64,000 nucleotides of DNA. Source: Acidobacteriota bacterium. Its GTDB lineage: Bacteria; Acidobacteriota; Terriglobia; Bryobacterales; Bryobacteraceae. The DNA is taken from contig JAEZIJ010000204.1 of NCBI GenBank assembly GCA_023436715.1, positions 3,548-67,547 of the forward strand. The letters are read 5' to 3'. The notes under the pieces were generated by a model. It was not told where the DNA came from. It ran no database searches and saw only the letters and a program-made list of their open reading frames with translations. Shown one piece after another: positions 3,538 through 56,837 of this stretch (position 1 is its first letter; each line of letters begins with the position of its first letter). The position numbers and the translations under genes were made by a program.

Positions 3538-4704
3538 CTATTTGCCGGTGAGCGCTGCCACTCCGGGCAGTTCGATGCCGGAGAGGTATTCGAGCGAAGC
3601 TCCGCCGCCGGTCGAGATATGGGAAATCTTTTCGGCCACGCCGGCGGCCTTCACGGCCTTCTCCGAATCGCCGCCGCCCACGACCGAGAGCGCGCCCGAG
3701 GCCGCCACCGCTTTCGCGACGGCCACCGTGCCGTTGTCGAACGGAGGCTTCTCGAAGACACCCATCGGCCCGTTCCAGATCACGCTCTTCGCGGTCGAGA
3801 GCGCCTCCGCGTACAAGGCGATGGTTTTCGGACCGATGTCCACGCCGATCATGCCGTCCGGAATCGTCTCCACAACGTCGTAGTACGCGCCTTCCTTGAT
3901 CTCGGCCGCGACCACGTGATCCACCGGCAGCGTAAGCTTCGAGGTCTTCGAGAGAAGATCCTTCGCCAGATCGATCTTGTCCTCCTCAACCAGAGACTTG
4001 CCCGTCGGCTTGCCTTGCGCCCGCATGAACGTGTACGCCATGGCGCCCCCGATCAGGAGCCGGTCGACGAACTTCAGCAGGTTCTCGATCACCTCGATCT
4101 TGTCGGAGACCTTGGCCCCGCCGAGAATGCCGACGCACGGGTGGGGCGGATTCTCCGTCACGCGGCCGAGGTACTCGAGTTCCTTCTCCATGAGGAGGCC
4201 GGCGGCGGACTTGGGCAGATACTTCGTGATGCCGACGGTGGAGGCGTGCGCGCGGTGCGCCGTTCCGAATGCGTCGTTCACGTAATAGTCGCAACCGGTC
4301 GAAAGCTGGCGGGCGAACTCGGGATCGTTCTTCTCCTCTTCGGCGTGGAAGCGCAGATTCTCGAGCAGCACGACGGCGTTGTCGCTCTTCTTTAATTCAT
4401 CCGCTTCCGGCCCGATGCAGTCCGGAGCCATGGCGACGTGCTGTTTGAGCAGTTCCTGGAGGCGCGCTGCGACGGGCCGCAGACTCATCTCGGGATTCCG
4501 CTTGCCCTTGGGCCGGCCCAGATGACTGGCCAGCACGAGTTTCGCACCCTGCTCCAGCGCGTACTTGATGGTGGGGAGCGAGGCGCGGATGCGCTTATCG
4601 CTGGTGATCTCCTGCCCGCCCGGGGCGAGGGGAACGTTGAAATCGACTCTCATGAAGATCCGCTTGCCGCGCAGATCCAGATCACGTATGGACAGTTTTG
4701 GCAT
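3538..4704 (-). CDS. pgk: phosphoglycerate kinase
   Basis: MPKLSIRDLDLRGKRIFMRVDFNVP.., SHLGRPKG, AFGTAHRAH and STGGGASLE motifs. Start taken at MPKL (4704) rather than the track start at 4722. Confidence 0.95.
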   Translation of the reverse strand: MPKLSIRDLDLRGKRIFMRVDFNVPLAPGGQEITSDKRIRASLPTIKYALEQGAKLVLASHLGRPKGKRNPEMSLRPVAARLQELLKQHVAMAPDCIGPEADELKKSDNAVVLLENLRFHAEEEKNDPEFARQLSTGCDYYVNDAFGTAHRAHASTVGITKYLPKSAAGLLMEKELEYLGRVTENPPHPCVGILGGAKVSDKIEVIENLLKFVDRLLIGGAMAYTFMRAQGKPTGKSLVEEDKIDLAKDLLSKTSKLTLPVDHVVAAEIKEGAYYDVVETIPDGMIGVDIGPKTIALYAEALSTAKSVIWNGPMGVFEKPPFDNGTVAVAKAVAASGALSVVGGGDSEKAVKAAGVAEKISHISTGGGASLEYLSGIELPGVAALTGK

Positions 4705-4933
4705 GTTCACCTCGTAACACAATAAACCTAAATTGTAAGTGATTCAGCTCGGGCACCGCTGAGAAAGGCCGGGAGGCCTGTCTCACGTGAAACCTGAAAC
4801 CGGTCCCTTCCCGCCCCCGTTAAACCATCCAGAGCACCTCGGGTTTCGGGAGCCGGGCTACACTGGGTTGACGGTCCCCACCCGTGAGACTAGAATTAGG
4901 GGGTACTACCGTGTCCCGAAAGCGGAGAGGTGT

Positions 4934-6622
4934 ATGAAGGCGAAGAACTTGTGTATCTGCCTGTGGGCGTTCGGTCTGGCAGCCGCGGTGCCAAGTGTGC
5001 AGGCTGCAGGGCAGAATGATACGAAAAAATCGGAAGTAGCCCAGGCGCAGCGCGAGACCGTCGCCAAGCCGATGAGCGAAAGGGAGCGCCGCAGACGGGA
5101 GCAGAAGCTCAGGAAGGAACTCGAGAGCCCGTTCAAGAAGTGGCTGGACGAGGACGTGGGCTACATCATCACGGATGAGGAGCGCGCCGCGTTCAAGCGC
5201 CTCTCCACCGACGAGGAGCGCGAGCAGTTCATCGAGCAGTTCTGGCTCCGGCGCGATCCCACCCCGGACTCTCTGGAAAACGAGTTCCGTGAAGAGCATT
5301 ACCGCCGCATAGCGTACGCGAACGAGCGCTATGCGTCCGGCATCCCGGGCTGGAAGACAGACCGCGGCAGGATCTACATAACTTTCGGGCCGCCGGACGA
5401 GAACGAGTCCCATCCCTCGGGCGGCACCTACGAACGGCCGATGGAAGAGGGCGGCGGCACGACCTCGACCTATCCCTTTGAGAAGTGGCGCTATCGCTGG
5501 ATTGAGGGCATCGGCACCGACGTCAACATCGAGTTTGTCGACCCGACGATGACCGGCGAGTACCGCATGACCATGGATCCGTCCGAAAAAGACGCCCTGA
5601 TGATGGTGCCCAACGCCGGCCTCACGCTGTATGAGCAGATGGGGCTGACGTCCAAGAACGACCGATTCAACCGCACGGACGGCACGCGCCTGGGCATCGG
5701 CGACATGGCAACCTCCTCGCGCATGAACCAGTTCGAGCGACTGGAACAGTACGCCAAGCTCCAGAAACCGCCGACGGTGAAGTTCAAGGACCTCGAGGCA
5801 GTCGTAAACACCCGGATCACGTACAACCTGCTGCCCGTAAGGGTGCGCACGGATTTTATCCGGATGACGGAGTCCACCGTGCTCACCAGCGTAACGGTGC
5901 AACTAGATAATAAGGACCTCCAGTTCCAGGATAAAGAAGGCGTCAGCAAGGCCATGGTGAATATGTACGCGCGAGTCACCTCCATGGCACGGCGCCCCGT
6001 GAACGTATGGGAAGAACCGGTGGTGATCGAGACCCCGACTGAGATGCTGCAGCAGGCCACGGGCCGCGCCTCCATCTACAACCACTCGGTGTTCCTGGCT
6101 CCCGGCACGTACAGGTTGAACGTGGTGGTAAAAGACGTGGTCGGCGGCACGATGAACAACTACGAGGCTGCGCTGCATGTGCCGCGGTTCGAAGAGGAAA
6201 AGCTGGCATCCAGCAGCGTAATTCTGGCCGACCTGATCGAGAAGGTGCCTACCCGCAACATCGGCACCGGCCAGTTCGTGATTGGCGATTCCAAAGTCCG
6301 CCCGCGCGTGAGCGACGCGTTCAGGCGGGACGAGAAGATGGGCATCTACGTCCAGCTTTATAATTTCCAGCCGGACGAGAAGACGCAGAAACCGAACGGA
6401 ACGATCGATTACGAGGTCGTCCGGAACGGCAACAACCAGAAGGTTTTGGAGTTCAGCGAGGACGTAACCGGCCTGCCCGGCGCTTCAGCCCAGCAGGTAA
6501 CCGTGGAGAAGCTGCTGCCCCTCAAAACTCTCGAACCGGGGCAGTATACTTTGAAGATGAAAGTGACGGACCGGCTGAGGAACCAGGTACTAACGCCGTC
6601 CACCACTTTTACTGTAAACTGA
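4934..6622 (+). CDS. GWxTD domain-containing secreted protein
   Basis: Signal peptide MKAKNLCICLWAFGLAAAVPSVQA from the ATG at 4934, plus the GWKTDRGRIYITFGPPDE motif. Track ORF 4787..6622. Confidence 0.8.
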   Translation: MKAKNLCICLWAFGLAAAVPSVQAAGQNDTKKSEVAQAQRETVAKPMSERERRRREQKLRKELESPFKKWLDEDVGYIITDEERAAFKRLSTDEEREQFIEQFWLRRDPTPDSLENEFREEHYRRIAYANERYASGIPGWKTDRGRIYITFGPPDENESHPSGGTYERPMEEGGGTTSTYPFEKWRYRWIEGIGTDVNIEFVDPTMTGEYRMTMDPSEKDALMMVPNAGLTLYEQMGLTSKNDRFNRTDGTRLGIGDMATSSRMNQFERLEQYAKLQKPPTVKFKDLEAVVNTRITYNLLPVRVRTDFIRMTESTVLTSVTVQLDNKDLQFQDKEGVSKAMVNMYARVTSMARRPVNVWEEPVVIETPTEMLQQATGRASIYNHSVFLAPGTYRLNVVVKDVVGGTMNNYEAALHVPRFEEEKLASSSVILADLIEKVPTRNIGTGQFVIGDSKVRPRVSDAFRRDEKMGIYVQLYNFQPDEKTQKPNGTIDYEVVRNGNNQKVLEFSEDVTGLPGASAQQVTVEKLLPLKTLEPGQYTLKMKVTDRLRNQVLTPSTTFTVN

Positions 6623-51061: not shown

Positions 51062-51946
51062 ATGCCGGCTACCAGCAATTTCAAAACCTTCAACCCCGAT
51101 CTCCAGAACTCCGAGACGGACTCGCAGTACGCCTCCGACGTCATGCGCACGGGCGGCGCCGTGCTCGACGCACTGCTGCCCTCGCCGCTCTTTAACAAGT
51201 TCGCGCACCAGGTCTCCATGTTCCCGGCGGCCTTCTGCCAGATGCTGGCGAACAAGGGATTCTCGACCTCGGACGCGGATTTCAACAACCTTGTGTCGGT
51301 GCTGTCGAACGTCAAGACGGGGGCGGATTTCACATCGCCCATCGTGGTGGTTCCGTATGCAACGGCGGTCACCTTCGACGCCTCGGTAGCGGCCGAGTTC
51401 GATCTCACCCTTTCGGGCAACGTTTCTGCCTCCTCTCTGGTCAAGGTCTCCATCGGCCAGATGCTGACGTTCATCATCACCCAGGACGCCATAGGCGGGC
51501 GCACGCTCTCCTGGCCGGCGAACATGACCTATCCGGGGCCGATCTGCGCGCTGCCGAACAGCACCAGCATTCAGATGTTCGTCGTGCGTCCGAACGGCAT
51601 GATCGCGCCCGTCACGCCCATGATCCAGATCTCGGGAGGACTCATTGTCCCGCCGCTGCCCTCAGTGGTGAGCGTGAGCGCGAGCGGAGACATCTCGAGC
51701 GCCAACAAGGAGGTGTTCGAAAAGGTCAACGCCTCGGCCGGAGCGGTGTCGCGGAACATCTTCACGGCGGCCGGCTTCTCGGGCTTCAAGGTCCACGTCA
51801 AGAAAACCGACACGAGCGCCAATGCGGTGACCGTGCAGCCGAAGGTTGCCGGGCAGACCATCGACGGCTTCCCGAGCGTGTCGATCGCCAAGTACAACGA
51901 TTCCCTGTCCATGATGTCGGACGGGGCGAACTGGTTCATCTTCTGA
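51062..51946 (+). CDS. tail fibre protein
   Basis: N-terminus (FNPDLQNSETDSQYASDVMRTGGAVLDALLPSPLFNKFAHQVS) is typical of fibre/collar proteins. Confidence 0.55.
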   Translation: MPATSNFKTFNPDLQNSETDSQYASDVMRTGGAVLDALLPSPLFNKFAHQVSMFPAAFCQMLANKGFSTSDADFNNLVSVLSNVKTGADFTSPIVVVPYATAVTFDASVAAEFDLTLSGNVSASSLVKVSIGQMLTFIITQDAIGGRTLSWPANMTYPGPICALPNSTSIQMFVVRPNGMIAPVTPMIQISGGLIVPPLPSVVSVSASGDISSANKEVFEKVNASAGAVSRNIFTAAGFSGFKVHVKKTDTSANAVTVQPKVAGQTIDGFPSVSIAKYNDSLSMMSDGANWFIF

Positions 51947-51955
51947 GGTATCCAC

Positions 51956-52636
51956 ATGGCATACATCCAGGGCAGGATTCAGAAACAGCAGACCTTCACT
52001 TCGAGCGGCACGTTCGCACCGTCGGCCGCGCTGTTGCAAGCGGGCGGATGGGTCGAGGTGCTGCTCGTTGCGGGCGGAGGCGGAGGTGGAGCGGGTAGCA
52101 GTGGAAGCAATGCCAGGTCCGGCGGCGGTGGAGGAGGAGGCCAAGTCGTCAGGCGCATGGTTCAAGTCTCCGGGGCGCTCACTGTGACTATTGGGGCTGG
52201 CGGCGCCCCAGGCGGAAACGGAGGCAGTTCGTACTTCGGGCCTCTCTTGGCGGCAAACGGTGGGTACGGGACTTCCGGGGCGTTCGGCGGAAACTGCGGA
52301 GACGGCAGCGGAGGGACAGGGGCGTCCGACCTTTACGGACTTGTCGGAGGTGGCGGCGGGGCTGGCGGCGCGGGCGGAGGGATCAGTGGCTCTGCGGGTG
52401 GCGGGATAGGCGGGCCTGGGCTCTACGGGTATGGCGGTGGCGGTGGATCTGGAGGGGCCCATGGCGGCAGTTGCGGAGGCGGCAAGGGTGGATTTGCCAA
52501 TCCCGGCACAGGCGTGGGCGGCAATGCGGTACCGAACAGCGGGAGCGGAGGCGGGGGTGGCGCTACCGGAGCGGAAGCCGGATACAGCGGCGGCTCCGGC
52601 GGCTCGGGCATAGCGATTGTGACCTGGTGGGAGTGA
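51956..52636 (+). CDS. glycine-rich domain protein (fibre-associated)
   Basis: VLLVAGGGGGG.. with long GGxGG tracts, ending in GIAIVTWWE. Confidence 0.6.
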   Translation: MAYIQGRIQKQQTFTSSGTFAPSAALLQAGGWVEVLLVAGGGGGGAGSSGSNARSGGGGGGGQVVRRMVQVSGALTVTIGAGGAPGGNGGSSYFGPLLAANGGYGTSGAFGGNCGDGSGGTGASDLYGLVGGGGGAGGAGGGISGSAGGGIGGPGLYGYGGGGGSGGAHGGSCGGGKGGFANPGTGVGGNAVPNSGSGGGGGATGAEAGYSGGSGGSGIAIVTWWE

Positions 52637-52639
52637 TCC

Positions 52640-52828
52640 ATGCCGATTCCAACGAACATCTACGCCCTGATCGAAAACCGCACGGTGGTCAACATCATCG
52701 TGGCCGACCCGAACTTCGTCCTCCTGCACTTCCCGCAGGCGGTCCGCATCGACAACCTTATGCCGGTGCCGTGCATCGGCTGGAGCTACATAGGCGGGGC
52801 ATTCAAGGCCCCGGGAGAAAATCAGTGA
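52640..52828 (+). CDS. small phage hypothetical protein
   Basis: Track ORF of 62 aa. Confidence 0.45.
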   Translation: MPIPTNIYALIENRTVVNIIVADPNFVLLHFPQAVRIDNLMPVPCIGWSYIGGAFKAPGENQ

Positions 52829-53325
52829 AACATCTACTCGCAGTTCTGATTCTGCTCGCGCTCGCGGTACCGTCCGTGGCGCAAACCGCAACCGACCAGC
52901 CGGCCTACTTCATCGGTGCGAACGTAGGCTTCTCGCGGGCCGCCTCCGTAAATCCCACGCTCGGTATCGGCTTCGGCATGCGCGCGGCCAACACCGACGG
53001 CACTTGGGCGACACTGGAGTTCGCAAACGCCACCGCCGTAACCTCCACCATACAGGTTGGCCTGCGTCAGGTGCTCGCCAAGCGGGGCGGCTGGAGCCTG
53101 ATCGCGCTCGGCTCAGCCGGTGGCGCCGTCACCCAATCGGACGACTCCGGACAGGGCAGCGCCATCACGGCCATGTTCGGCGGCGGCGGCGGACTCGCCT
53201 ATGACCTGACAAGGATCTGGTCCAAGCTCGACACGCTGAGCCTGGAGGCCCAAGTTAAGGCGGTCAAGATCAACGGAACCGATGTCCAGCTCGGCTTCGC
53301 CGGGTGGATCACGAAGAGTTTCTGA
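52825..53325 (+). CDS. small outer-membrane beta-barrel protein (Lom/Ail/OmpX-size)
   Basis: GTG at 52825. Signal peptide VKHLLAVLILLALAVPSVAQ. Alternating-polarity strands. C-terminus ..GFAGWITKSF ends in Phe. 166 aa. Confidence 0.6.
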   Translation: MKHLLAVLILLALAVPSVAQTATDQPAYFIGANVGFSRAASVNPTLGIGFGMRAANTDGTWATLEFANATAVTSTIQVGLRQVLAKRGGWSLIALGSAGGAVTQSDDSGQGSAITAMFGGGGGLAYDLTRIWSKLDTLSLEAQVKAVKINGTDVQLGFAGWITKSF

Positions 53326-53327
53326 CC

Positions 53328-53993
53328 ATGAAGCCCGCTTCCATCGCCCTCCGTATCGCGGCTGCGCTCTGCCTGCTCGCCTTGGGCGTGGCCGCGTTTT
53401 GGTCCGCTCACAGCCTCGCCGCAGCGCGGGCGGACCTCCGCGCCACCGGGGACGCGCTGGCGGGTTCCGTAGCCGCGGCGCGCGCGGATCTGGCCGCCAC
53501 CCAAGCCGCGCTCGTCCACGAGGTCCAGGCCGCACGTGAATCCGCCGATGCGCGGCTGGCAGAAGCGCTCAGGGAGGTTCGCTCCGCTCGGGTGAACCTG
53601 AGAGACCAGCTTGCCTCGGCGAACGCCACGGCGGCCGGTCTCCGCGCGGACGTGCGTCCAATTCTCGAGAATGCCACCGTTGCGGTCTTGCCCTACGGTT
53701 CCCTCGGGGCCGAAGCGACGCGATTGGCGCGCAACGCGAACGACTCCTGGGATGACCTGTATCTCGACGTTTCGGCTGCGGTCCAGTCCGCAACGGTCGC
53801 CAGCCGCGGCGTTGCTGAGGCATCCGAGGCCGTCGGCAAGGCGGCGCCAGCCGTGGCTCAGGCGGCCGAACTAAATGTTCCCGTGATGCTCGACGACAGC
53901 AGGCAGATCGTCAAGAACGTGAGACGCGGGACGAGCCTGCCGATGGTGATTCTCAAGTTCGCGTGGGACAAGACGCTGGGGAGGTTATTCTGA
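53328..53993 (+). CDS. N-terminally membrane-anchored Ala-rich coiled-coil protein (i-spanin-like topology)
   Basis: MKPASIALRIAAALCLLALGVAAFW is followed by about 190 aa of helical ARADL/AAL repeats. The start lies 3 nt after the OMP gene's stop. Confidence 0.55.
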   Translation: MKPASIALRIAAALCLLALGVAAFWSAHSLAAARADLRATGDALAGSVAAARADLAATQAALVHEVQAARESADARLAEALREVRSARVNLRDQLASANATAAGLRADVRPILENATVAVLPYGSLGAEATRLARNANDSWDDLYLDVSAAVQSATVASRGVAEASEAVGKAAPAVAQAAELNVPVMLDDSRQIVKNVRRGTSLPMVILKFAWDKTLGRLF

Positions 53994-54199
53994 TGTCCAC
54001 TGAAGAAGTTCAGACAGCATTGCTGAGAATCATCCTGGTGTGCCTCGCCGGGATGCTGCTCATGGGGCTCCTGTCTTTCTGGATGACTCCATCTTACGTG
54101 GCTGGCGCGCAGGTGACCTTCGACACCTTCAAGGAAATCTTGTTGGTCAGCCTGGGCGTGAAGGGAGGCATGGCGGTTCCGGGAGCGGCTAAGCCGTGA
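53993..54199 (+). CDS. putative holin
   Basis: 68 aa with one or two TM helices (LLRIILVCLAGMLLMGLLSFW). TGATG coupling upstream; overlaps the endolysin start. Confidence 0.45.
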   Translation: MSTEEVQTALLRIILVCLAGMLLMGLLSFWMTPSYVAGAQVTFDTFKEILLVSLGVKGGMAVPGAAKP

Positions 54200-54636
54200 A
54201 ACTCAAAGCGCAGTCACAACCGCCCGCGCAGCGCGAGAGGATGACCGAGCATTTCGCGCGGGAAGAGTTCGCGTGTCCATGCTGCGGTCAGGCGCCGATC
54301 GCCCAAACCCTCGCCTCGGCCCTGGAGGGTCTACGCGGCATCGTCGGAGTAGCTATCCGGATCAATTCCGGATACCGCTGCGAGGCGCACAACAAGGCCA
54401 TCGGCGGAGAGCCGCACAGCAAGCATTGCCAGGGCATCGCGGCCGACATCTCGGCCGAGTGCGGGTGGCGCAAACTCTACGAGGCAGCCCTCCGCATTCC
54501 CGCCATCTCCGACGGCGGGATTGGGTTGTACCCCGATTCGGGCCTCGGCTTCATCCATGTCGATGTGCGACCGCAGAAGGCCCGCTGGGCGCGAATCAAG
54601 GGCAGGTACGTCGGGATCGAGCAGGCGCTCGTGTGA
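54196..54636 (+). CDS. endolysin, peptidase M15 (D-Ala-D-Ala carboxypeptidase/VanY-like) family
   Basis: FACPCCG; INSGYRCEAHNKAIGG..SKHCQGIAADI; FIHVDVRP (H..D..H zinc ligands). Confidence 0.8.
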   Translation: MKLKAQSQPPAQRERMTEHFAREEFACPCCGQAPIAQTLASALEGLRGIVGVAIRINSGYRCEAHNKAIGGEPHSKHCQGIAADISAECGWRKLYEAALRIPAISDGGIGLYPDSGLGFIHVDVRPQKARWARIKGRYVGIEQALV

Positions 54637-54637
54637 C

Positions 54638-55066
54638 CTACGCGGCATCCCGAACGTCAATGGCAACGCGCTTGCCGAGCACGCTGAATGCCGCCTCGAT
54701 CTGATCGAGACGAGTATGGTTCTTGAAGTCAAAGAGGCGGTCTATCGTGGTCTTGGGGATGTCCAGCCGCCGGGCCAGTTCGGCCTTGCGCATGCCCGAG
54801 GCAAGAAATGCCATGTAAAGCTCGACCTTCAACGATATCATTGCGGGCAACTCGATCATGCGATACTTCTTGCCCTTCGGCCTGCTGGGATGAGGCACTG
54901 GCAATCCGCGGCGGATGTAGTACGCAAACATGGTGACCAGGGCGTCTTCGGCCATTTCCAGGGCATCCTGTTCGTTATCGCCTTGCGAGAGAGCTTCGTC
55001 CACGTCAGGGAAGGTCACGAGGATCTTTCCGCCGTCAACGGGCTCAAACACTGCCGGATACTTCAT
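54638..55066 (-). CDS. hicB: HicB-family antitoxin with a C-terminal HTH
   Basis: MKYPAVFEPVDGGKILVTFPDVDEALSQGDNEQDALEMAEDAL.. plus GMRKAELARRLDIPKTTIDRL. Confidence 0.85.
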   Translation of the reverse strand: MKYPAVFEPVDGGKILVTFPDVDEALSQGDNEQDALEMAEDALVTMFAYYIRRGLPVPHPSRPKGKKYRMIELPAMISLKVELYMAFLASGMRKAELARRLDIPKTTIDRLFDFKNHTRLDQIEAAFSVLGKRVAIDVRDAA

Positions 55067-55069
55067 GTG

Positions 55070-55249
55070 TCACTCTCCTATCCCGAGTTTCTTCAGAATC
55101 GCATAGTACGTGCCCGTCGCAATTTCTTTGGACGGGTGGCGCGGCATTTCAGTCCGCTTGCCGTTGTACTCGACGACGAGATGGCGCGTGCCCTGCTCGA
55201 ACGTGCATCCCAGCTTCGTCAGTTTCCGCTTAAGTTCGCTCGCCGTCAT
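55070..55249 (-). CDS. hicA: HicA-family mRNA interferase toxin
   Basis: Own translation: MTASELKRKLTKLGCTFEQGTRHLVVEYNGKRTEMPRHPSKEIATGTYYAILKKLGIGE (59 aa, below the track cutoff). It ends 3 nt upstream of hicB. Confidence 0.85.
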   Translation of the reverse strand: MTASELKRKLTKLGCTFEQGTRHLVVEYNGKRTEMPRHPSKEIATGTYYAILKKLGIGE

Positions 55250-55291
55250 GTTTTAATGATACGCAACTTTGCTTACTGAGTCAAGCGAAAA

Positions 55292-55609
55292 GTGAGCAAA
55301 AATGCTAACTTTTTTTGCCTGGAGTCGAGGCTTTCCGAGGGGTCACTTTTGCGGAGAACGGCTGAAAGCGCGGCGCTGAGTGGGGTGGGCCGTGTTCCTC
55401 GCGTGGCCCTCTGCACGCGGATCGAGCGCGGGATCACGATATGGGATGACGGCGAGCGCCGGCGGTGGAAATGCCCCGAGTGCGGATGGTGGAACGACTG
55501 GGGCGCGGCGTGCCGCTGCGGGCGGGCGGACGGCCACACCGAGGAGCCCTCCTCGCTCGATTCGTGTCAACCCCAGTTGCCACGGCGCTCGTTGCGTAAA
55601 GCGGGCTAA
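55292..55609 (+). CDS. possible small zinc-ribbon protein (true start probably internal)
   Basis: WKCPECGWWNDWGAACRCG. GC3 is high only from about 55400 onward; the first ~35 codons look non-coding. Confidence 0.35.
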   Translation: MSKNANFFCLESRLSEGSLLRRTAESAALSGVGRVPRVALCTRIERGITIWDDGERRRWKCPECGWWNDWGAACRCGRADGHTEEPSSLDSCQPQLPRRSLRKAG

Positions 55610-55650: not shown

Positions 55651-56394
55651 CTACTCTCCCACCCGCCAATGAAAGTTGAACGTGACGTCGGCGGCCTTCT
55701 TCACCGGCTGCCCATTGCAGCTCGCGGGCCGCATCTTCCACCGCGCCAGGTTCTCGCGTATCAGCCGTTCGTACTCCGCTTGCCAGTCGAGCCCGCGCAC
55801 CACTGGGCCGGGCTGCACCTCGGCAGGATGGAACGAAACGGGCGTGACGCGGCCGGAATCGTCCACCACGATGCCCACCGTGATCCGCGCCGGTGGTCCG
55901 CGGCGGTCATCGGGTGAGGGCGGCTTGTATATCACAACCGGGTCTGAGCATCCGGGCGCCGGGCCTGGCTCCTGCCTGCCCTCCACGTCGAAGCGGAATC
56001 GCACCGCAGCCGCGACCGCCGTACGCTGGCCTCCGCACACGGCCGGCTCGAAGCGCGAATTCTCAAGCACGGCGCGGGCGATGGCCTTGTACACGTCGCC
56101 GTAGACCCCTTCCTCTGTGTTCCCGCTGATCCCTTGCGCCCGCAGCGCGCGCCAGCGGCCGAACGGCAGATGCGTGTTGAGTGTGCCCGTGATGCGCGGG
56201 ATTCCGGAATCGCCGATGACCACCTCGAAGTCCACGTAGTACGAGGCGTCCGTGAAATGCGGCGCGAGGGCCAGCGTGCGGACCACCGGCGGCTCGCAGT
56301 TCGGGCCGGGATACGTGACTCCGCGGATGTCCAGGGCTGTCGAATCGGCCTGAAGGATGGCCGCCGAGAACACGATCAAGGTCAATGCGCGCAT
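55651..56394 (-). CDS. secreted protein with two TonB-C-terminal-like modules
   Basis: Signal peptide MRALTLIVFSAAILQA. Two segments end in ..AAAVRFRFDV and ..AADVTFNFHW, similar to TonB_C beta-strand endings. Confidence 0.55.
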   Translation of the reverse strand: MRALTLIVFSAAILQADSTALDIRGVTYPGPNCEPPVVRTLALAPHFTDASYYVDFEVVIGDSGIPRITGTLNTHLPFGRWRALRAQGISGNTEEGVYGDVYKAIARAVLENSRFEPAVCGGQRTAVAAAVRFRFDVEGRQEPGPAPGCSDPVVIYKPPSPDDRRGPPARITVGIVVDDSGRVTPVSFHPAEVQPGPVVRGLDWQAEYERLIRENLARWKMRPASCNGQPVKKAADVTFNFHWRVGE

Positions 56395-56837
56395 TGCTCC
56401 CCTTGTTGAGATATCGCCGCCCGCGCAACCGTGCGGATGCCAGCCACGGACCGCACCAGCGCCCCGGTACGCACCGGACTCACGCCGATTGCATTGAGCG
56501 CCATCTGGATCCGCATGCCCGCCATGGCCAGTTCGAACTTCATCCGCGAGCGCACGAGCGCGCGGGTGAGGTCGGGACGGTCAACCGGCGACGTCAGCAT
56601 GAGCGCCTTGGCCGCACTCTCCAGGGAACCGTAGTCGCTCCGGACGCGCCGCAGAAGCGCCCGCAATTCTCGCCGGCACTCGCATGGCGTCAGCAATTCC
56701 AGCTTTGAAAGATCCCCGCCCAGTTCGGCCGGAAGCTCCTGTTGCCCTGGTACCGGACTGGACACAACCGCCCGCAACAGAAAGGCGAAGGCCCCGCCGA
56801 TTAGCGCGGCCCCGCCAAGCACCAGTAAGACCATCAT
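56382..56837 (-). CDS. N-terminally membrane-anchored hypothetical protein
   Basis: MMVLLVLGGAALIGGAFAFLL anchor. 13-nt overlap with the downstream gene. Confidence 0.5.
   Translation of the reverse strand: MMVLLVLGGAALIGGAFAFLLRAVVSSPVPGQQELPAELGGDLSKLELLTPCECRRELRALLRRVRSDYGSLESAAKALMLTSPVDRPDLTRALVRSRMKFELAMAGMRIQMALNAIGVSPVRTGALVRSVAGIRTVARAAISQQGEQCAH

Follow-up and report, generated by a model that had tools for sequence, protein, structure and literature searches.

Organization of the lysis cassette

We analyzed a DNA stretch of 64,000 nucleotides from an Acidobacteriota bacterium of the Bryobacteraceae (contig JAEZIJ010000204.1, positions 3,548 to 67,547; in the following termed the window), which carries a myovirus-type prophage with its late genes on the + strand. 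Downstream of the tail fiber genes, four consecutive genes encode a 166-amino acid (aa) putative outer membrane protein (OMP), a 221-aa protein with an N-terminal membrane anchor (CC, after the coiled coil suggested for it), a 68-aa protein with one clear transmembrane (TM) segment and an M15 endolysin. A preliminary description of the locus had considered OMP and CC either as a non-canonical spanin pair or, in the case of OMP, as a Lom-type lysogenic conversion gene. As set out below, the gene context suggests that the two proteins may form an analogue of a two-component spanin that lacks a lipoprotein. All four open reading frames (ORFs) were confirmed and extend over 52825-54636 on the + strand (Table 1). 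Baseplate hub and wedge genes of the prophage were also found by PHROG matches.

The four genes are tightly packed. The junctions are, in order, GTGA between the 62-aa gene and OMP, a 2-nt gap between OMP and CC, TGATG between CC and the 68-aa gene and GTGA between the latter and the endolysin gene, which bears out the coupling noted previously (a CC start right after the OMP stop and a TGATG link to the 68-aa gene). The OMP start is preceded by GGGAGA 7 nt upstream, and the 68-aa gene has a strong ribosome-binding site, GGGGAGG, 8 nt upstream. With an E. coli-type promoter consensus, from which that of this phylum may differ, a scan of the + strand from 51.1 to 54.6 kb showed neither a sigma-70-like promoter nor an intrinsic terminator; the sole sigma-70-like promoter within 50-56 kb lies upstream of hicA. 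The hicBA pair is convergent with the endolysin gene, and the late operon ends there. GC content at third codon positions (GC3) is 0.80, 0.79, 0.74 and 0.80 for OMP, CC, the 68-aa gene and the endolysin gene, respectively, and 0.83-0.88 for the structural genes. Since the junctions are coupled, promoters and terminators of their own are missing and GC3 matches, OMP and CC are, as judged from the sequence, embedded in the late transcript and not free-standing.

The assignment of the endolysin was upheld: it matches Peptidase_M15_3 (PF08291, E=1.1e-15) with 58.1 bits against a cut-off of 23.2, and phrog_894, annotated as endolysin, with E=6.5e-31. It carries neither a signal nor a signal-anchor-release (SAR) segment and is predicted to be cytoplasmic. 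For the 68-aa protein no significant family was found, only the TM region of Wzz at E=7e-4, under the cut-off, and the small TM proteins encoded at related loci include no homologue of it.

Table 1. Features of the prophage and its late operon in the window
Feature	Position	Strand	Evidence or remark
Terminase	26655		PHROG match
Portal	28927		PHROG match
Major head protein	32700		PHROG match
Sheath	36563		PHROG match
Tape measure with transglycosylase domain	39059		PHROG match
Fiber-like protein, 456 aa	45698-47068	+	Signal peptide with lipobox-like FSAC
Tail fiber-like gene	51062-51946	+	
Gly_rich_2 protein, 226 aa, glycine-rich tail fiber	51956-52636	+	PF21722, E=1.7e-12
62-aa gene, last of tail module	52640..52828	+	phrog_14370 (unknown function), E=7.6e-6
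OMP, 166 aa	52825..53325	+	GTG start, TGA stop
CC, 221 aa	53328..53993	+	ATG start, TGA stop
68-aa one-TM protein, holin candidate	53993..54199	+	ATG start; size and position
Peptidase_M15_3 endolysin	54196..54636	+	GTG start; PF08291, phrog_894
hicB-hicA toxin-antitoxin pair	54638..55249	-	HicB_lk_antitox E=4.5e-6, HicA_toxin E=5.9e-10
Pair of a 151-aa and a 247-aa protein in cargo block	55651-56837	-	

The CC superfamily is linked to unrelated endolysins

CC contains a single N-terminal hydrophobic segment (residues ~7-27) following K2 and R9, and Ala makes up 26% of the protein. In its relatives the hydrophobic N-terminal segment comprises 23-25 residues, which is too long for a cleaved signal, and CC is predicted to be a type-II (N-in) inner membrane protein with a single N-terminal TM domain (TMD). 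An AlphaFold2 model based on a 10-sequence alignment consists of helices 3-123, 125-203 and 205-220, with a mean pLDDT (predicted local distance difference test) of 71. The N-terminal TM segment, the Ala-rich composition and the helices thus agree with the coiled coil of the preliminary description, although the coiled coil itself is a helix prediction only. With a lone N-terminal TMD and a predicted helical periplasmic domain, CC shows the traits by which i-spanins, the inner membrane subunits of two-component spanins, are recognized.

About 10 homologues with 36-41% identity were found initially, and ~40 further CC loci were obtained from viral, genome and metagenome contigs; the named relatives come from metagenome-assembled genomes (MAGs) of Solibacteraceae, Bryobacteraceae and Terriglobia, in agreement with the assignment of the window to the Acidobacteriota. 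All members share a short basic N-terminus, a hydrophobic anchor of 20-25 residues and ~190 mostly helical residues. An invariant motif, SWDDLY.DV.A.V.S.T.A.RG.AE.SEA.G.AAP, occupies residues 140-174 of CC, and the C-terminus of the superfamily reads (T/V)(K/R)P..W followed by an amphipathic or hydrophobic tail of 13-18 residues. The tail of CC itself is amphipathic and aromatic. Across the loci, the tail type did not correlate with whether an OMP gene was present. The 243-aa protein of locus L005 and the 237-aa protein of L024 (mutual BLASTP E=5e-16) constitute a sub-family, CC2, which has the same architecture and C-terminal element and is remotely akin to CC (E=2e-4 in hhalign; E=2e-8 for the L024 protein in a local hmmsearch with the CC profile). 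A search of viral contigs with the CC2 alignment yielded nothing. CC itself has no match in Pfam, PHROG or NCBIfam, including their spanin families, and none in 50,697 deposited phage genomes. A profile search of the PDB returned chance helical proteins only, and Foldseek with the CC model against viral structures gave nothing below E=3.

Gene maps of the related loci were drawn by GC3-based ORF calling together with local hmmsearch and phmmer. In ~20 sequence-distinct loci the CC gene is located directly 3' of an endolysin gene, often overlapping it. The preceding endolysin is of the Glucosaminidase type in L004, L016, L017, L019, L033, L034, L039, L049, L051 and L063, belongs to a first Phage_lysozyme group in L040, L041, L043, L044, L047 and L050 and to a second one in L014. 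CC precedes the endolysin gene, at a distance of no more than two or three genes, in the window, L007 and L015. The linked endolysins, Glucosaminidase, two Phage_lysozyme groups and, in the window, M15, are unrelated in type. The place that CC holds after the endolysin is that of Rz after R in lambda-type cassettes. This linkage to non-homologous endolysins is the strongest evidence of our analysis, and we regard CC as very probably a lysis-cassette protein with an i-spanin-like topology.

In several loci CC is followed by a gene for a protein of 114-125 aa to which we assign no function (L004:6770-7114, L007:3001-3372, L017:4596-4940, L030:8863-9222 and L058:6471-6815). The window cassette is devoid of this gene. 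In L030 (G279), CC and this gene are part of an apparent chromosomal remnant near ftsA/ftsZ-like genes, and in L058 a 136-aa protein encoded upstream of CC resembles a cell wall hydrolase by eye. Damaged copies of CC were observed as well: in L036, L055 and L056 (a Terriglobia MAG and matching metagenome contigs) the gene is split into 114-aa and 72-aa ORFs at ~4600-5255, and in L045:943-1950 one 335-aa frame fuses the C-terminus of an endolysin to CC. These copies look like decaying prophage remnants.

Absence of a canonical spanin

We searched for lipoprotein ORFs using relaxed lipoboxes, including AWAC-like ones, located behind a charged n-region and a hydrophobic h-region. The preliminary description had noticed no lipobox ORF at the cassette, and this was corroborated: a six-frame ORF scan of 52400-55300 returned no credible lipobox ORF, and a lipobox scan of the whole window no candidate for an o-spanin (the outer membrane subunit) or a u-spanin (unimolecular spanin). 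Beside none of the CC relatives was an embedded, overlapping or adjoining lipobox ORF found, and no OMP-family locus contains a lipoprotein ORF. On these negative scans of cassette, window and all related loci we rejected a canonical spanin pair, and under the criteria that Kongari et al. 2018 (PMC6139136) applied, the prophage counts as spanin-less. About 13% of the phages of Gram-negative hosts lack a recognizable spanin (PMC6139136).

The sole lipobox-like match of the prophage is FSAC, followed by VLAQ, in the signal peptide of the 456-aa fiber-like protein, which we discarded as an o-spanin because of its size and its distance from the cassette. CC was also rejected as a unimolecular spanin: its N-terminal AALC is no lipobox, and its C-terminal tail of 13-18 residues is amphipathic and does not form a TMD. 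Rz-like matches of CC relatives had E values of 0.03-0.06 and were not significant.

OMP founds a phage-restricted family

OMP begins with MKHLLAVLILLALAVPSVAQ/TA, a Sec-type signal that ends in AQ, and the same ...AQ signal end is present on two host proteins matching OMP_b-brl. The mature protein has 146 residues, with 15% Gly, 14% Ala, 10% Thr and no Cys, and ends in ...GWITKSF, so that the length of 166 aa, the signal peptide and the C-terminal ITKSF given earlier were all read again. By inspection, hydrophobic and polar positions alternate in eight segments, each 10-14 residues long. The only Pfam match at E<1 is OMP_b-brl (PF13505), with E=0.07 and 13.7 bits against a cut-off of 28.7.

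The first homologue search retrieved three proteins with 49-60% identity. A profile search of 1.84 billion representatives then gave 73 relatives at E<=1e-3, nearly all of 150-180 aa. An alignment of 44 sequences shows almost no variation at Q20, located at the signal cleavage site, or at F166, and a C-terminal Phe is found in at least 90% of the members, a few remote ones having 2-5 extra residues beyond the aromatic C-terminus. No Pfam match at E<=0.01 was obtained for the 44 members, and the profile matched neither a PDB sequence nor an NCBIfam model. An integral beta-barrel fold, as proposed initially, is plausible from the predicted Sec signal and the C-terminal Phe, though the PF13505 match stays below cut-off and the structural model has low confidence.

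Among 400 other genomes of the phylum, narrow and broad profiles of the family gave two weak matches besides G000, which led us to reject a host-derived OMP. One match, in G256 (L023), was dropped as chance, with E=7e-5, a position inside a 443-aa frame and a non-phage context. In hhalign, the OMP profile and the two host OMP_b-brl proteins aligned in the signal peptide region only. There was no OMP match in 50,697 deposited phage genomes, and OMP-query searches of viral, metagenome and genome collections for related loci yielded nothing. Judged by this distribution, OMP founds an unannotated, phage-restricted and sporadic family.

The preliminary description had further likened OMP to OmpX, Ail and Lom. 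The similarity in size holds, but no profile similarity accompanies it: no match to Ail_Lom (PF06316) was obtained at E<=1, and hhalign against lambda Lom gave a probability of 0.3%. With no promoter- or terminator-like site of its own, coupling on both sides and a GC3 in line with the cassette, the reading of OMP as a Lom-type conversion gene finds no support. Like the 8-stranded barrels of the Lom/Ail/OmpX type it is small, phage-encoded, of outer membrane type and situated after tail fiber genes; unlike Lom/Ail, it forms no autonomous transcription unit, and its recurrent place is next to lysis genes and CC-like proteins and not among the tail genes.

One distant member, encoded at L024:5001-5489, has LLAC at residues 11-14, before the usual ...TAQ site, and could be lipidated. 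A Cys at this signal position was seen in no other OMP member examined.

Gene neighborhoods of the OMP family

We read 13 distinct contexts of OMP-family genes (Table 2). Lysis-type neighbors are present in 12 of them, and in seven a CC-superfamily gene is located within one gene of OMP, so that the co-occurrence beside lysis cassettes for which the earlier text had asked is indeed observed. The OMPs of these context groups have mutual identities of 25-60% or less, and at least four families are represented among the neighboring endolysins. We consider it somewhat probable that the OMP family belongs functionally to the lysis module instead of being free cargo.

Table 2. Gene order in the contexts of OMP-family genes
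Context	Gene order
Window	OMP, CC
L005 (OMP 53% identical)	2-TM protein of 65 aa, OMP, CC2
L024/L025 (OMP 29%)	OMP, 1-nt gap, CC2, 61-aa TM protein
L052/L053	CC, OMP, TM protein
L060	45-aa TM protein, CC, OMP (partial; hhalign 94%)
L066 (OMP 25%)	CC (hhalign 97%), 52 aa, OMP
L015	CC, 76 aa, remote OMP-like protein (hhalign E=4e-5), 74-aa TM protein, lysozyme, 98-aa TM-helical protein
L033/L037, L034/L038	Endolysin, CC; OMP 3-4 kb downstream
L001	OMP, 92 aa, 81-aa TM protein, Phage_lysozyme
L006	2-kb contig; OMP flanked on both sides by small TM proteins
L022:8067-9343	TIGR02594-family putative hydrolase (E=8e-28), 4-nt overlap with the start of a 246-aa remote OMP-like protein
L026/L027	OMP between capsid-size gene and head-tail genes

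Four contexts (L001, L006, L022 and L026/L027) are without a CC-superfamily gene. The 246-aa protein of L022 carries a signal peptide and is a remote match of the OMP profile (E=1e-7 locally); in this Mu-like prophage (G352) the hydrolase and the OMP-like protein are encoded between the Mu-type transposase region and the terminase. In L005, two genes upstream of OMP and before the 2-TM holin-like gene, a 116-aa protein with a HELVH (HExxH-like) motif is encoded at 152-502, for which no Pfam match was found. At L033:8900-9969 and L034:5616-6637 OMP is paired with a short protein of ~100-140 aa that has an N-terminal TM segment, a helical remainder and a conserved block 'NGKYVSEKL / VNG.Y.K..C'. 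It has the size of an i-spanin, no family match and no lipoprotein partner, and homologues occur near the endolysin in L013, L015 and L019.

A possible two-component spanin analogue without a lipoprotein

In the reading that we favor, the four genes would constitute one late lysis cassette of the myovirus-type prophage. The 68-aa protein would be the likely holin and give the cytoplasmic M15 endolysin access to the wall. CC would use its N-terminal helix as an anchor in the inner membrane and extend a helical rod of ~190 residues across the periplasm in the role of an i-spanin. OMP would be exported by Sec and then insert into the outer membrane or bind tightly to it, acting as the outer membrane partner in lieu of a lipoprotein o-spanin. 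Once the wall is degraded, a bridge of CC and OMP would disrupt or fuse the outer membrane; alternatively, the amphipathic C-terminal tail of CC, held at the outer membrane by OMP, would carry out the disruption. Contact between the two proteins and a role in outer membrane disruption are what this scheme presumes. Given the gene context, we regard a lipoprotein-free two-component spanin analogue composed of OMP and CC as a serious possibility that falls just short of being probable. We are more doubtful about its physical form, a pair spanning the periplasm in replacement of Rz/Rz1, made up of OMP and CC or, at loci with a distant CC, of OMP and a different type-II helical protein. Equally tentative is the assignment of an integral, non-lipoprotein OMP as the outer membrane subunit of a two-component spanin with a long helical inner membrane partner.

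Several features are shared with the two-component spanins lambda Rz/Rz1 and T4 PseT.3/PseT.2. Two adjacent genes are located within a holin-endolysin cassette; as in Rz/Rz1, one product is a predicted type-II inner membrane protein with a helical periplasmic domain and the other is predicted to be exported to the outer membrane, and the two are the sole candidates in the phage for outer membrane disruption. Unlike Rz1, OMP has a signal of the signal peptidase I type, without a lipobox or a Cys, and whereas o-spanins are lipoproteins of 40-130 aa, mature OMP comprises ~146 aa of predicted beta-structure. The gene order also differs: OMP precedes CC, while an o-spanin gene is usually embedded in, overlapping or located after the i-spanin gene. 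CC is longer than most i-spanins and possesses a conserved amphipathic C-terminal tail, and in contrast to Rz/Rz1 the pair has no periplasmic Cys and no sequence likeness to any spanin family.

A number of observations weigh against such a pair. Most two-component spanins form intermolecular disulfides (PMC6139136), for which CC and mature OMP offer no periplasmic Cys, the one Cys of CC (C15) being inside the TM segment. The AlphaFold2 model of OMP, calculated from an early 4-sequence alignment, contains strands but reaches a pLDDT of only 38.8, and Foldseek with it found no match in the PDB, a result that is uninformative because of the poor model. The period-2 hydrophobic moment of the OMP alignment exceeds that of shuffled sequences by only z=1.5, and position -3 from the C-terminus is an atypical Lys instead of an aromatic residue. 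In L033 and L034 OMP is directly followed by the different short TM-plus-helical protein and CC lies 3 kb off, and in the head module of L026/L027, the sole context of this kind, OMP has no lysis-type neighbor. All OMP contexts derive from related Acidobacteriota phages and are therefore not statistically independent. At most CC loci no OMP-family gene was detected within 4-5 kb, so that OMP is no obligate partner of the CC family. In L040, L047, L050, L051 and L016 the operon stops after endolysin and CC with no small TM protein near, an arrangement that would also fit CC as the protein causing the inner membrane lesion. The idea of a non-canonical spanin pair thus gained from the missing lipoprotein ORF and the co-conservation of the two families in seven of 13 contexts, but it is limited by the many CC loci without OMP and by the one OMP in a head module, so that the reading of CC acting alone stays live.

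An OMP in this function has been anticipated: Kongari et al. 2018 (PMC6139136) pointed out that their criteria left other topologies out of account and would miss such systems; in their words, 'an OMP could act as an o-spanin'. A full-text literature search returned no report of an OMP acting as an o-spanin. A non-lipoprotein o-spanin was therefore foreseen in 2018 and has not been identified so far, and the conserved gene pairs described here in Acidobacteriota phages are where one might be sought. To our knowledge, how phages without a recognizable spanin open the outer membrane has been answered so far only for phiKT, which uses a disruptin. Two unannotated families with a defined gene order render the idea of a non-lipoprotein spanin clonable and testable. 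They also supply an annotation signature for lysis cassettes of Acidobacteriota phages, namely the motif SWDDLY...ESATVAARGVAEASEA in a type-II helical protein of 220-270 aa whose gene directly adjoins that of the endolysin. Current spanin finders miss such cassettes because they start from the lipobox. Should the pair be cargo or an exclusion system instead, it would still represent a new phage outer membrane protein family.

Alternative explanations

CC might instead work alone as a single-chain, lipoprotein-free disruptor of the outer membrane, with its N-terminus in the inner membrane and its conserved amphipathic C-terminal tail reaching the outer membrane. OMP would then be an accessory or cargo, for example a superinfection-exclusion, receptor-masking or lysogenic conversion protein at the junction of tail fiber and lysis genes. 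This junction is a known hot spot for cargo genes, and receptor-blocking and outer membrane cargo genes typically stand beside tail fiber genes, as do lambda lom, phi80/N15 cor and T5 llp. The scarcity of OMP at CC loci points in the same direction, as does a C-terminus of KP..W plus hydrophobic helix that is kept throughout the superfamily irrespective of the presence of OMP. OMP in turn is present without CC in L001, L006 and L022, and in one case (L026) it is part of a head module. CC would resemble T1 gp11 in being a single chain proposed to bridge both membranes, and like u-spanins its relatives are often the only extra gene beside the endolysin. T1 gp11, however, has an N-terminal outer membrane lipoprotein anchor, a C-terminal inner membrane TMD and a periplasmic part rich in beta-structure; CC is oriented the other way round, carries no lipobox and is predicted to be all-helical. 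The amphipathic tail also recalls the spanin-independent route via an amphipathic helix taken by the disruptin gp28 of phiKT and by membrane-active endolysin tails, but gp28 is a small soluble cationic peptide, whereas CC is a long protein with a membrane anchor and a tail that is not strongly cationic. What speaks against OMP as mere cargo is that it has no transcription signals of its own, is coupled to both neighbors, has a composition fitting the late operon and shows no similarity to Lom/Ail. Moreover, its association with lysis-type genes in 12 and with CC in seven of 13 contexts, despite deep divergence, is hard to explain by independent insertion of cargo. We consider CC acting alone a possible explanation, though a rather unlikely one.

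A holin, holin regulator or antiholin function of CC, similar to the class III holin T of T4, appears improbable to us. The 68-aa protein would then be a second holin-level factor, and the outer membrane would be broken in some other way or not at all. Related endolysins do carry no signal or SAR segments, CC is the sole membrane protein beside the endolysin in the five loci at which the operon ends with it, and small TM holin-level lysis factors such as Lcc6 of LambdaSo are known. In size and topology CC also matches T4 T, a protein of about 218 aa whose single N-terminal TMD is followed by a large globular periplasmic domain, and a lysis function would be common to both. Yet no similarity to T was detected and no holin family of Pfam, PHROGs or NCBIfam is matched, and for the periplasmic part of CC the prediction is not a globular domain but an extended helical rod, rich in Ala, that ends in an amphipathic tail. 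In addition, a small TM protein of the usual kind is encoded immediately upstream of the endolysin gene in the window, where it represents a separate holin candidate, and in several relatives, and the recurrent OMP neighbor would be left unexplained.

Finally, OMP might be no integral barrel and act as a soluble, beta-rich periplasmic lysis accessory, such as a wall- or outer membrane-binding factor or a regulator of CC, in keeping with the low-confidence model in which no barrel was recovered, the beta-amphipathicity weakly above shuffles, the lack of an OMP profile match at threshold and the residues past the aromatic C-terminus in some members, but this is very unlikely in view of the Sec signal ending as in host OMP_b-brl proteins, the prevalent C-terminal Phe, the eight alternating segments with a Gly/Ala/Thr-rich, Cys-poor composition typical of small barrels, and OMP_b-brl as the sole Pfam match at E<1.

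Outside the late operon, the cargo block after hicAB contains a further combination of an inner membrane anchor with a secreted protein: on the minus strand, the gene for a 151-aa N-terminally anchored helical protein overlaps that for a 247-aa protein with a signal peptide.

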